A program made the translations under genes and the position numbers. Below the pieces are notes generated by a model that worked only from the letters and a program-made list of their open reading frames with translations, had not been told where the DNA came from and did no database searches. This document shows positions 4,201 to 11,399 of a stretch of 64,000 bases of DNA, one piece after another; within the stretch, counting starts at the first letter, position 1, and each line of letters begins with the position of its first letter. The DNA comes from Catajapyx aquilonaris. Its lineage: Eukaryota. The DNA lies in NCBI GenBank assembly GCA_000934665.2, contig KZ537996.1:62001-126000 (forward strand), in the 5' to 3' direction.

Positions 4201-4759
4201 CCAAAATGATATAATTTCCTGACGAAATTCTCATTAGCGTCCATTTTTTTTCCTCCTCATCCAATTGACCTACTGACACACCACATTCCAGACTCTTAAG
4301 ACAACCCAACTCAGGTGTCCTAAGCAAAGTCCCGCCCAACTAACAGCTCCTGACATTTATTTGCCTATTAGGTTATATCTGAACTGTAAATGTGATGAAG
4401 CTGGCACACTCCGACATCAAAACAAACCATAAAGCTGCCCTCCCTGCGCCATTCCGAAAGTAGTTCCAGCCCACCCCGACCTCTCCATCTCCCCCTTGAT
4501 TAAGCTCCGCCCATCCACTTCCCGCCCAGATCCCTCCGCCGACATGGCCCTGCAATGAGCCTTCGCAGTTTTCTTTATTCTACCGGGTCAGCTGGTTACC
4601 TCGCAGTCTCATGCCAGCTGCTGTACCATACACGTCATGTTCCACACACTAATATACATACACCGGCCTGATACACTCGGTCGTAATACCTGGTGATTGC
4701 ACTAATTGCTATATGATCCCGGTAATGTACGATCCGGACACATGTAGTTGGCATAGCGG

Positions 4760-4775
4760 TCGGTAGATGGCAGTG
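4760..4775 (+). promoter_or_regulatory. CTCF-like insulator motif
   Basis: TCGGTAGATGGCAGTG matches the CTCF core (AGRTGGCRSTG). Confidence 0.45.
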
Positions 4776-6075
4776 TATGTCCTACGCGCCTAAAACAACT
4801 TGGCGCGCCGAGATGGGTAGTAAAGAGAAACTTAGTACGGTCATGAAGAAACATTATTGCCTTTTAACTCGACTATAAAGTCCTAACATGTGAGCTAGTT
4901 TTACACGTCTTCTCAGGGGGAGAGAAGAACCGCGGGATTGATGTCATAAAGATAACACCGACTCAAACGGCAAATAAACTTCATCAACAATTGGTATCCC
5001 GGGCTGGGAATTTATTAAGTAAGGGAACGGCCTCGTTATGAGGCAGTGAAACAGGTTGTTAATAGTACTCTCTTTCAGGCTAATGTAGTTGGCACAAGCC
5101 CGCTTTCCTTATGTCGGAATGTGGGTAAAACATAAGCGACGGTGGCAAGGTCCGTGTGTGAATTATGGGCATTGGCCTAGCAGGTTCCCTATCAATTTTC
5201 ATTGGCACAAGGAAAGCAGCTGGGTCTCCCTTGACTACCCCCCACCCTTGCCTTCCCCTACGACACTTCCTGATGGAGTTGAGTCCCCTCGTGCAGAGTT
5301 CATCAAGCTGCCTCTAGTAACTCGCTCGACTTGACACTAATGTGCGCCAAAGAAATTCTACAAGGCGCTATATACCTGCCCTCCGACTGCTATCTCGATT
5401 TTTTTTTTAAGAGACCGCCTTTGGAAGCTTTTGCTTATTACTGCTGGTTTGATCACCTTTTTTACACCTGCAAGTGGCCAGATGTCGCGGTGCTGACCAG
5501 CTGCTAACATATCAGACACAATGGTACATATGGTTCATGCAGGCATGCAAATGAAAAATGTGCAACTCAAGCAAGTCCTCCGTGAGAGTTCAGTTTGTCA
5601 TTATTGTGGTGGTCACCTTTTTGTCATTAATATAACGTTGGATGAGGCAGGTGTGCTGAAACAATATTGTTAACAGTGCAGTAGTCAGTTGGTTCGCCTG
5701 AAAAAAAAATATATTTGTCAGCATACAAGGTGCACAATATTTCACCAGCGAAGCAGAACCTGTCAGTGCATTCTTTGAAGGTGATGTTTTCATATTATTG
5801 CAGATTAGTACATACTAGTGGAGGAGAGAATTGAAATTCCATAGCCCATTCAGTAGTTAATGTCTCTATATCTGTAATCAATGGAGCAATTAGTTGGAAT
5901 ATTGGGAAATCAAAAGCCCATGAAAAAGTAATGCTGCACTGCTTAACATTAATGCAGGAGTGTAACAGCATTTTTATATCAGGTGTGACAATAGTAAACA
6001 ACCCTTTAAAAGCTTTGCCCAGCTTTTGCATCAATGGAAGCCTTGGTATCATCCTTTGCATGCAACAGCGTGTGT

Positions 6076-6161
6076 GAAACAAAACACCCTATAATTTTTT
6101 GTAGTCAAGGCAAGCAAACATGTAATTTATTTGCTACAGGTCTCAAATTATGCTGTTTATT
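6076..6161 (-). terminator. Candidate distal polyadenylation signal of Ubx
   Basis: Two AATAAA hexamers (plus-strand TTTATT at 6126 and 6156) with a downstream GU/U-rich element. Confidence 0.4.
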
Positions 6162-9100: not shown

Positions 9101-10019
9101 ATAATGGAGCAAATTACTGCAGAGTATAAGAAAATATAGAATTATCTTTGAATCCCTACTATCAGTATTATTTTTTGTTTTGTTTTGTTTTGTAAAAAAT
9201 AAATCCAAAGCAGCACAATCATTAGCTTAAGATAACAGCTGGTCCCTACAACTATGATAGTGGATCATAATAAGAAGGTTTGTGCTGCATCTTGGCAGGC
9301 TTCAATCCTTGAACAGAAAAGGAGTCTGGAATTATTTGTTGGCTTACACTAGGATATAAGTAGGTCATTGCCTAAATAACCACAACAGGATTACCAACCA
9401 GCTGCAACCTTCCTTTCATCCATGTCAAGGCCAATTTCAGTGGCCAGGGGTTGGGCTTGCCGATTAATAATCCAACATATAAATCATGCTTTCAAATGGA
9501 GTTGACAGTCAGTTTGTTTTCGTTAGCTTCGCCTGACAAGGTAGCAGTCTCCTTTCTTACTTAACTTGCTAGAAGTGCAGGGTTGGTAAAAAATATGAAC
9601 AAGTCCAAGATTAAAAGTCACCTGCAACGGTGTTGCTGAGCAAGACTTGAGTACTGGAACAAGTCTTAGAAGACATTACAAGCATGATAACTATCCAGTT
9701 CGCCACAGACACGTCCAGTGTGGGTGTCTACAATCTACATGGTTTGCCAATCTGAAAGCAGCTGTACTTGGTATGAAAACAACCAAAATGTGACCTAGTT
9801 TAAAACCAGCAAGAACTTGGCGAGTTGCACTGAAAGAGAACAATAGCCATTATTCATCCATCTCTTCAGGAGGCAGTGGGTGTTCCAGACTCAAAAAGGT
9901 GACCACCGGGTGTCAGACGGCACCCATGAACGAATCCAATCATGATAATAATCATGGAGGACTGCCCGTGGTTGCAAAAATTGGCTGACACCCTACCTTC
10001 TTAGTAGGGGTAGGAGCCA
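6105..10019 (-). other. Ubx: Putative long Ubx 3' UTR (~3.9 kb; end inferred)
   Basis: AT-rich sequence follows the stop codon. Minus-strand AATAAA occurs at 8019-8028 (two overlapping copies), 6156-6161 and 6126-6131. The last is followed ~40 nt downstream by the GU-rich GGTGTTTTGTTTC (~6076-6088). Confidence 0.5.
8322..8421. mobile_element. 100-bp Tc1/mariner (pogo/Tigger-like) MITE
   Basis: Imperfect 20-bp terminal inverted repeats CAGTAACACCTCGATATAAC ... GTTACATCGAGGTTTTACTG, flanked by TA on both sides (8320-8321, 8422-8423). Confidence 0.8.
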
Positions 10020-10402
10020 TTAGTTTTGGTTGGCGGGCGTAGTGGGCTCTGCACCACCTCCGCCAGCAGGGTGCTGACTACCCTGCTGTTGTTGCTGTTG
10101 TTGCTGCGGCTGTTGCTGCGACACGGCCACGGCGGCCGCCGCAGCAACGGCCGCCGCCTTCTGCGCTTGCGCCTGCTTCTCCTGTTCGTTCAGCTCTTTG
10201 ATGGCCTGAATTTCCTTCTTCAGCTTCATCCTCCTGTTCTGGAACCATATCTTGATCTGCCGTTCGGTCAGGCAAAGAGCGTGCGCCATTTCTATTCTCC
10301 TTCGCCGCGTGAGGTAGTGGTTGGTGTGGAATTCCTTCTCCAGCTCTAGGGTCTGGTACCTCGTGTACGTTTGCCGTCCTCGTCGCCTCAGGCCATTCGC
10401 TC
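10020..10402 (-). CDS. Ubx: Ultrabithorax, 3' (homeobox) coding exon; partial CDS, 5' exon outside the window
   Basis: Translation (G)[90 protein letters not shown]... has the Ubx-diagnostic homeodomain (HTNHYL, EMAHAL; ~10209-10388), the UbdA peptide QAIKELNEQ and the QA motif. On the minus strand the acceptor TTTTTGCATTCCAG|GA (AG at 10404-10403) gives a phase-1 junction G|GA. Stop TAA is at 10022-10020. The ORF-track extension [13 protein letters not shown] is intronic. Confidence 0.97.
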
Positions 10403-11399
10403 CTGGAATGCAAAAACTGGTCTTAGAACGAAGCATATCCAACTACATGCATTGTCACCTACACTACCACCAATTGGCTCATCCCAACTCATGCATACAT
10501 CACTTTTTTGATGATCAATGAATAAAGTAACGCAGGTAAGAACTACCTTTGTTGCAGTAGAAATGCAGACAAGTTATACTTCTGCCCTTTATGAATGTTA
10601 CCTTTATTAAGAGACTGCGAGTTCACCTGCTGGTCATATACAGCAGCGTTTCAAATTGGCCATGCCATAACCTTTATTGACTCAGGGGTTTTTAAGGAAG
10701 TTTTTTGAATCAAAATTTCCTTGGGCCCGGTAGTTCCACGTGATATCAGTCCTGATCACGTAATCAGATCATATAGACAGATATTTTTATGCATTTAGTT
10801 AGGTGATCCGTCCCTAATATTCCTTTCTTAGTTTTCTGGAAGAAACCTTTAGAATTAGTTTATCACCCATTTTATCCTAGATAATAATATTTTATTGTAA
10901 AAAAGTAATCTGTAGAAGACCAATGTTGATTCGTCCACTATTAGTTTTTGAGCAAATCGTGCTTGCCAGTGTTTATTAGATACGGAAAAGAATTGCAAAC
11001 TACAGGGATTCAGAGTTGAGATAGTGGGGTCAAAGTTGGGTCAAAGTTTCAATTATTACATGTTTCAAATGAAATTTTTATGTCAATTATTGGTTAGATT
11101 TGGTTAGTAGAAATATTTAATGGGCTATTGATTAGTGTATTTACACAAAATAATATTCAAATCACGTTTATGAACCAGAAAAAGGTGGCGTCAAGGATTA
11201 CGCGATTAGCCCCCACTCATCCGTTTCCGTAAAAGTTACTAAGAATTATCATTAATTCTAAATAGCAGTAGCTGCTTATTCCTCGTTTCTGCTAAAGCTT
11301 TTTACAAGAAATGGCATCTGCTAATGTTATTTTGTAAAATAATTACTTGGTTGCCAGCATGGTGGGATGAGGAACATTGCATAATACAGAGTGATCCAA

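Follow-up and report, generated by a model that had tools for sequence, protein, structure and literature searches.

Ubx terminal exon at the start of the window

The DNA analyzed here is a stretch of 64,000 nucleotides (nt) from Catajapyx aquilonaris (contig KZ537996.1, positions 62,001–126,000, assembly GCA_000934665.2). The whole stretch is referred to as the window, and its own positions are used as coordinates throughout. It contains the 3′ end of the Hox gene Ubx on the minus strand. An original prediction, made from the sequence alone, had placed a spliced plus-strand transcript at 4650..10541, antisense to Ubx and covering the whole homeobox exon. The interval is probably an ordinary minus-strand Ubx terminal exon with a long, CpG-eroded predicted 3′-untranslated region (3′-UTR).

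A minus-strand open reading frame at 10020..10442 covers the homeobox exon. The coding part of this exon (10023..10402, minus strand), defined by the open frame and by protein matches, encodes the homeodomain, the UbdA peptide, a QA motif, and a poly-Ala and poly-Gln tail, and it is closed by a TAA stop codon at 10020–10022. The residues that follow the homeodomain and UbdA peptide read QAQAQK, then poly-Ala, then poly-Gln. The 3′ splice site of the last Ubx intron (10403..10420, minus strand) was read directly from the sequence as a pyrimidine tract with AG at 10403–10404. Two features mark the exon as Ubx: the homeodomain is followed by a UbdA peptide with Ubx-type rather than abd-A-type residues, and the acceptor lies immediately upstream of the exon's first codons.

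Protein searches were carried out with the exon protein against longer proteins, of which 5482 of 6188 candidates matched at E ≤ 0.001. Among the matches listed, the Ubx proteins of many insects show 100% identity over 56–60% of the query. When the tails of 16 hand-chosen proteins out of the 120 listed matches were compared, the C-terminal tail was found to follow the insect Ubx pattern, with a layout nearest that of a locust, and the ostracod and spider matches in this set diverged from the Ubx tail already inside the QA motif. The tail alone (residues 70–126) gave no match among longer proteins at E ≤ 10, and the full-length Ubx of the same species was not among the matches to the exon protein. 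Full-length insect Ubx extends upstream with YPWMAIAG. No YPWM or other N-terminal, first-exon Ubx motif was found in any of the six frames across the 64-kilobase (kb) window, and the DNA from 10.4 to 64 kb is therefore read as the last Ubx intron, with a length of more than 53 kb.

A metagenome scan with the exon protein yielded 27 loci. When all 27 were compared with the window by blastn, alignment was confined to the homeobox, save for one weak 64-nt match of locus L007 at 1228–1291. Locus L001, on a 2549-nt metagenome contig, encodes at 220–471 a Ubx-type homeodomain with 96% identity over residues 1–83. Its DNA alignment ends exactly at the exon boundary at 10403, and the intron position is therefore common to both.

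On the plus strand, a 111-residue Leu/Arg-rich open frame (10014–10349) runs antisense to the homeobox exon and mirrors its poly-Gln and poly-Ala codons. The antisense RNA of Glomeris carries a similar Leu-rich frame of 113 residues (Janssen and Budd 2010, PMC2938723), and such frames can therefore be regarded as a by-product of the sense codons.

CpG-depleted block downstream of the stop codon

The DNA downstream of the exon is dominated by an AT-rich, CpG-depleted block (5493..9906), which begins ~115 nt past the Ubx stop codon and is contiguous with the exon. On the basis of composition and change points, it is most likely Ubx 3′-UTR plus termination zone. Its two edges are maximum-likelihood change points (log-likelihood gain 28.4), the probability of G after C being 0.052 in the block (41 CpG at 795 C) versus 0.142 elsewhere in the first 20 kb. 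The observed/expected ratio (o/e) of CpG is 0.28 in the block (5501–9900; TpG 1.32, CpA 1.47, GC 36.7%), compared with 0.68 in the flank at 1–5500 (TpG 1.08, CpA 1.05, GC 45.4%) and 0.74 in the intron at 10450–64000 (TpG 1.11, CpA 1.10, GC 43.1%). The coding part of the Ubx exon retains its CpG (o/e 0.73–0.86). Relative to the local background, the block lacks approximately 60% of its expected CpGs and has gained TpG and CpA. This combination is the one classically left by cytosine methylation followed by deamination. Outside the block, C exceeds G almost throughout the plus strand, with a cumulative GC skew down to −4.0; in the block, 826 G stand against 789 C.

The abrupt drop in CpG noted in the original prediction is real, and it is the edge of this 4.4-kb block. 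The adjoining "CpG-rich patch" (4501..5492), in which a promoter had been proposed, is modest. CpG in this flank is at or slightly above background: the 500-nt window at 4501–5000 has an o/e of 0.99 (12 of 128 windows are as high) and 28 CpG (3rd of 128), and that at 5001–5500 has an average o/e among the 128 (0.61). With a GC content of 0.48–0.49, the patch is not a CpG island, in which both o/e and G+C stand clearly above the surroundings. It appears CpG-rich mostly by contrast, because composition returns to background at ~5.5 kb, beside the depleted block. The sequence TTGGCGCGCC is present at 4800–4809. No core-promoter evidence was noticed in the patch, where no scan for eukaryotic core-promoter motifs was made.

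The depletion could also stem from a separate germ-line-active unit of ~4.4–5 kb on either strand, for example an unspliced antisense RNA running from ~5.5 kb to the AATAAA at 10521, with the gene-body methylation of that unit, not transcription of Ubx, having eroded the CpGs. This is considered unlikely. Several observations fit such a unit, namely the sharp bounds of the block at 5493 and 9906 beside a Ubx intron that is not depleted (o/e 0.74), the absence of a comparable drop downstream of 19 other homeobox exons, and the plus-strand AATAAA at 10521 with a T/G-rich stretch just past the exon. The Ubx terminal exon, however, shares the limits of the block, so these limits do not discriminate between the two origins. 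There is also no promoter evidence at either block edge, and CpA and TpG show no significant strand asymmetry.

Polyadenylation (poly(A)) signals on the Ubx sense strand fall within the block. Two overlapping AATAAA hexamers with first bases at 8028 and 8024 (8019..8028, minus strand) lie ~2.0 kb past the stop codon and mark a predicted proximal poly(A) site. Two more, with first bases at 6161 and 6131 (6126..6161, minus strand), lie ~3.9 kb past the stop codon, are followed by GGGTGTTTTGTTT, and mark a predicted distal site. A GT-rich stretch follows each cluster. No minus-strand AATAAA or ATTAAA was found between 10020 and 8028, so that an Ubx mRNA ending at a canonical signal has to extend 2 kb or more into the block. 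In both Strigamia and Drosophila, Ubx is reported to undergo tandem alternative polyadenylation (PMC4244043).

The content of the block was examined for other functions. Pfam searches of 16 open frames, 12 of which lie in the block, returned no family above the cut-off, and three matches at E 0.05–0.08 were rejected as far below it. No Rfam family reached its gathering score in the 64-kb window, and four weak matches in 4000–11000, far below their gathering scores, were rejected as chance. No repeats common to the block and the rest of the window were found. With tandem sense-strand poly(A) signals and none of these other features, the block is most simply read as Ubx 3′-UTR. Short motifs of 7 to 8 nt (BX-C microRNAs, Pumilio, GY-box) occur five times on the sense strand and not at all on the plus strand of the block, a weak lead with too few occurrences to test; the AU-rich-element motif points in the opposite direction (one sense-strand and two plus-strand occurrences), and these are again too few to test.

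Within the predicted 3′-UTR, a long hairpin can be folded at 8296–8445, with arms of ~45 paired bases and a loop of ~50 nt (−46 kcal/mol versus −26 ± 3.4 for shuffled sequences, z −5.8). It lies in a sub-stretch (8000–8450) that holds 10 of the block's 41 CpGs, and no Rfam family matches it. The hairpin has the appearance of a miniature inverted-repeat insertion of younger age.

A perfect 16-nt inverted repeat is found at the two block edges (5608–5623 and 9892–9907), its arms 4268 nt apart, and is the sole perfect one of this length in 4000–11000. In the RNA, its arms could base-pair and so connect the beginning of the 3′-UTR with its end; alternatively, it could mark an old insertion or be due to chance. 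If it bounded an old, non-autonomous DNA transposon that brought or acquired a CpG-poor composition, Ubx would read into the insertion and use its poly(A) signals. In favor of this, the right arm ends at 9907, next to the change point at 9906, and GC content is 36.7% inside versus 43–45% outside. Against it, a perfect 16-nt inverted repeat turns up in 18% of 300 sequences simulated for the 7-kb region with a Markov model; the repeat stops at 16 nt; no target-site duplication was seen flanking it on reading; the open frames scanned with Pfam encode no transposase or other domain; and there is no second copy within the window. A transposon was rejected as the main explanation of the block on these grounds and is regarded as very improbable.

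Splice-like sites on the plus strand

Each motif on which the antisense transcript had been built is present at its coordinate, as verified by direct reading of 4500–11000. To rank the sites, a crude position matrix with approximate, generic metazoan frequencies was used rather than MaxEnt; for each site, the number of sites in the 64 kb scoring at least equally was counted by strand. On this scale the true Ubx acceptor, at 9.3 bits, ranks 47th among the minus-strand acceptor-like sites.

The highest-scoring of the plus-strand sites is the donor-like CAG/GTAAGA at 10533..10541 (GT at 10536–10537), which lies 134 nt past the homeobox exon and scores 10.9 bits, with only two sites as good on the plus strand and three on the minus strand. 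The acceptor-like site at 9853..9869, ending in CTCTTCAG, scores 9.55 bits (58 plus-strand and 41 minus-strand sites as good). The 143-nt candidate "exon" at 8795–8937 (8781..8943 with its flanking sites) is bounded by an acceptor ending in CCCCAG at 8794, of 10.1 bits (45 plus, 31 minus), and a donor AG/GTAAGA with GT at 8938–8939, of 8.9 bits (19 plus, 29 minus). A third acceptor-like site, ending in CTTTCAG (5066..5078), is weak at 6.2 bits (224 plus, 180 minus). A plus-strand AATAAA (10521..10526) was read 10 nt ahead of the donor at 10536. No canonical branch-point motif was seen, on reading, upstream of the acceptors at 8794 and 9869. The description of these signals as strong is apt for the donor at 10536; for the acceptors at 8794 and 9869 it means no more than that the true Ubx acceptor does not outscore them, and it fails for the acceptor at 5078.

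Most of these sites are unremarkable against the background of the window. The motif AGGTAAGA occurs 3 times versus 1.86 expected, a count reached in 30 of 100 shuffles, and AGGTRAG occurs 11 times versus 13.0 expected. Pyrimidine tracts ending in CAGG are enriched over the whole window (88 versus 50.5 expected), which reflects the pyrimidine richness of the plus strand as a whole and is not peculiar to the 4650–10541 interval. Plus-strand AATAAA occurs 6 times in 4000–11000 versus 7 minus-strand occurrences in 4000–10030. At looser thresholds, 18 donor-like and 17 acceptor-like sites were counted on the plus strand in 4500–10700, and 11 and 15, respectively, on the minus strand.

Candidate "exon" loci were then defined as acceptor–donor pairs 50–700 nt apart at the site quality of the original prediction. 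The 64 kb contain 7 such loci on the plus strand and 8 on the minus strand, and two or more fall within 16.5% of 5.9-kb windows on either strand. First-order Markov sequence yields 2.65 ± 2.0 pairs per strand, compared with 11 observed on each; because it yields fewer pairs, real DNA rather than random DNA is the proper null. Two correctly ordered "exons" within 5.9 kb are not unusual. The 8795–8937 "exon", the acceptor at 5078, the AATAAA at 10521, and the ordered arrangement are all at background density. As a caution, GT/AG motifs of such quality recur about once per 8–9 kb per strand in this DNA.

The pair formed by the acceptor at 9869 and the donor at 10536 fares differently in the comparison with background. 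It encloses the whole 383-nt coding exon, and 1.5% of 383-nt segments are so enclosed at the same thresholds. Of 3352 control segments taken from both strands, 1.67% match or exceed the summed score of the pair and 0.84% its minimum score. For comparison, the antisense strands of other homeobox exons on the metagenome contigs were scored: 21 of the 27 loci were entered, six being omitted by hand, and another three dropped out because their flanks were too short, so that 18 loci remained. Their percentiles range from 0.025 to 1.0, and since only one of the 18 lies at 0.05 or below, there is no systematic antisense bias. The enclosing-pair excess is real yet modest, post hoc, and dependent on a crude matrix. 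It points to a single junction pair that deserves a look in RNA data.

A coincidence of similar size is seen on the sense strand, where a donor AAG/GTAGGG of 9.1 bits (9991–9999, minus strand) lies 23 nt past the Ubx stop codon. Crustaceans, myriapods, and an onychophoran are described as having Ubx/Antp read-through transcripts from which nearly the whole Ubx 3′-UTR is removed by splicing, but such transcripts were reportedly not found in Tribolium (PMC2938723). By analogy, the site at 9991–9999 would fit the donor of such a read-through.

Enclosure of the homeobox exon lends mild support to a plus-strand long non-coding RNA (lncRNA) that would start in the Ubx–Antp intergenic DNA and carry an exon from the acceptor at 9869 to the donor at 10536, or to the poly(A) signal at 10521. 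Such an RNA would cover the homeobox exon and its 3′ splice site and could dampen Ubx by convergent transcription or splice-site masking. The enclosing pair belongs to the top 0.84–1.67% of control segments, the homeobox controls show no systematic bias, and the donor at 10536 is one of only 5 sites of such score on both strands of the 64 kb. There is also precedent, and the statement that antisense Ubx RNA from the 3′ end of the gene is known in myriapods is correct: antisense Ubx (aUbx) is described in Strigamia and Glomeris and also in Lithobius, and an antisense lncRNA of the Antp–Ubx intergenic region in Tribolium (PMC8293171, PMC2938723). The Strigamia clone is complementary to the Ubx 3′-UTR, with a promoter 3′ of Ubx, and in Glomeris and Lithobius aUbx was detected by sense probes (PMC2938723, PMC8293171).

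Sequence statistics nevertheless lean against most parts of this proposal, and such an RNA is rather improbable. The enclosure statistic is post hoc and the matrix crude; neither the 8795–8937 "exon" nor the site at 5078 nor the AATAAA at 10521 rises above background; the proposed promoter patch does not qualify as a CpG island; and the acceptors have no canonical branch-point motif upstream. The Ubx in question has an insect-type tail, and aUbx was reportedly not found in a spider or an onychophoran and is treated by the authors as a myriapod synapomorphy (PMC2938723, PMC8293171). For insects, a 2021 review holds that natural antisense transcripts overlapping Hox exons "either do not exist or are not yet found" (PMC8293171). 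No paper describing an antisense transcript across the 3′ part of an insect Ubx was found in the open-access literature searched, in which Brena et al. 2006 and Shippy et al. 2008 are represented through PMC8293171.

A broader version can be drawn, in which an insect-type Ubx has a convergent antisense transcript whose exon (9870–10535), or poly(A) end at ~10540, covers the homeobox exon and 3′ splice site, and in which the CpG-eroded block is the methylation footprint of a germ-line-active unit; this, too, is rather improbable. If true, it would provide an Ubx natural antisense transcript outside the myriapods and extend the aUbx mechanism to hexapods, where exon-overlapping Hox antisense RNAs are stated to be unknown. 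The myriapod mechanism would then look ancestral or recurrent, and the locus would offer a testable handle on Hox regulation by convergent transcription.

A long Ubx 3′-UTR as the probable explanation

Taken together, the interval is probably best explained by Ubx itself. The last Ubx intron ends at 10403, and the terminal exon encodes the homeodomain, UbdA peptide, and insect-type QA/poly-Ala/poly-Gln tail (10402–10023) up to the stop codon (10022–10020). A long AT-rich 3′-UTR would follow, with tandem poly(A) signals ~2.0 kb (8028/8024) and ~3.9 kb (6161/6131) downstream, and germ-line cytosine methylation with deamination would have eroded the CpGs of the non-coding part of the exon. The plus-strand GT, AG, and AATAAA motifs would then be ordinary background occurrences for which antisense RNA is not needed; in keeping with this, splice-like loci are equally common on both strands (7 versus 8), and the exact donor motifs occur at chance frequency. 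The exon with its splice site and stop codon, the presence of the signals, and the base composition are directly shown by the sequence, whereas use of the poly(A) signals, transcription of the entire block as Ubx 3′-UTR, and methylation as the cause of the CpG loss are inferred. If the block is Ubx 3′-UTR, the 8795–8937 "exon" and the first 150 nt of the 9870–10535 "exon" would be part of the Ubx mRNA. The sharp limits and low CpG content of the block may be a record of germ-line methylation where a Hox gene ends.

Some observations weigh against a long Ubx 3′-UTR as the complete explanation. The extent of the 3′-UTR is itself a prediction from poly(A) signals and composition, and the block runs ~600 nt past the distal AATAAA, with no canonical signal at its 5.5-kb edge. 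CpG loss limited to the terminal exon, with an intron o/e of 0.74, is not general to homeobox loci: among 19 metagenome homeobox loci, 12 have a lower CpG o/e in the downstream 1.5 kb than upstream, and the largest drop is to 0.68 of the upstream value, compared with 0.38 here. The block is not fully explained in this respect. The asymmetry between CpA and TpG (385 versus 328, hand chi-square p ~0.13) is too small to name the transcribed strand. Finally, the pair at 9869/10536, a top 0.84–1.67% configuration matched at 5% or better by only 1 of 18 controls, has to be put down to chance.

CTCF-like motifs and an open frame farther downstream

The proposed promoter patch had also been credited with a CTCF-like motif, for which no coordinate was given. 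With a CTCF-type consensus, written as a 14-nt IUPAC motif, a sole match was found in the patch at 4760–4773; it carries 2 mismatches in 14 positions, and better matches lie outside the patch at 3930–3943 and 3977–3990. Across the 64 kb, four motifs with at most one mismatch were found versus 0.47 expected, a number reached in 0 of 100 shuffles, at 3930–3943 (minus strand), 3977–3990 (plus strand), 12542–12555 (minus strand), and 59224–59237 (minus strand). The first two form a divergent pair 34 nt apart, ~6 kb past the Ubx stop codon, and the other two lie in the last intron. In butterflies, clustered CTCF motifs near the end of Ubx belong to an Antp–Ubx boundary element (PMC10945631), and by analogy the cluster found here may be an Antp/Ubx boundary element.

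Farther downstream of Ubx, a stop-free plus-strand frame of 224 codons is present at 2532–3206. It has no Pfam match and a composition unlike that of protein, and is probably a chance frame or a decayed element.

Comparison with known systems

In butterflies, CTCF motifs cluster around Ubx and non-coding transcripts are found there (PMC10945631); in this window, CTCF-like motifs are likewise in excess. The butterfly RNAs (lincRNA Ubx-AS5′ and Ubx-IT1) are located 5′ of the gene or in an intron and not over the homeobox exon. Their boundary element, too, is placed differently, within the last intron, compared with 6 kb past the stop codon for the best CTCF-like pair here.

A parallel to the proposed antisense RNA is offered by Tribolium, an insect with antisense lncRNAs in the Antp–Ubx intergenic region and in the Ubx intron (Shippy et al. 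2008, via PMC8293171). The intergenic transcript is likewise antisense and non-coding; the review's sentence on it does not state an overlap with Ubx exons. The myriapod aUbx is similar in layout: the proposed RNA, too, would begin downstream of the 3′ end of Ubx, be read from the opposite strand, and extend over the 3′-UTR and coding exon (PMC8293171, PMC2938723). The myriapod RNA differs in being known from clones and in situ signals, whereas the candidate here comes from sequence alone, and in being reported as specific to myriapods, whereas the present Ubx has an insect-type C terminus.

The Ubx genes of Drosophila and Strigamia provide the comparison for a long Ubx 3′-UTR. The C. aquilonaris locus differs from them in that use of its poly(A) signals is predicted and in a 2.6-fold, UTR-confined CpG depletion, which was not found described in the literature consulted and was not seen in the 19 other homeobox loci. 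It resembles them in that the homeodomain, UbdA peptide, and QA tail are encoded in one last exon after a very long intron, and in that several sense-strand poly(A) signals are spread over kilobases downstream of the stop codon.

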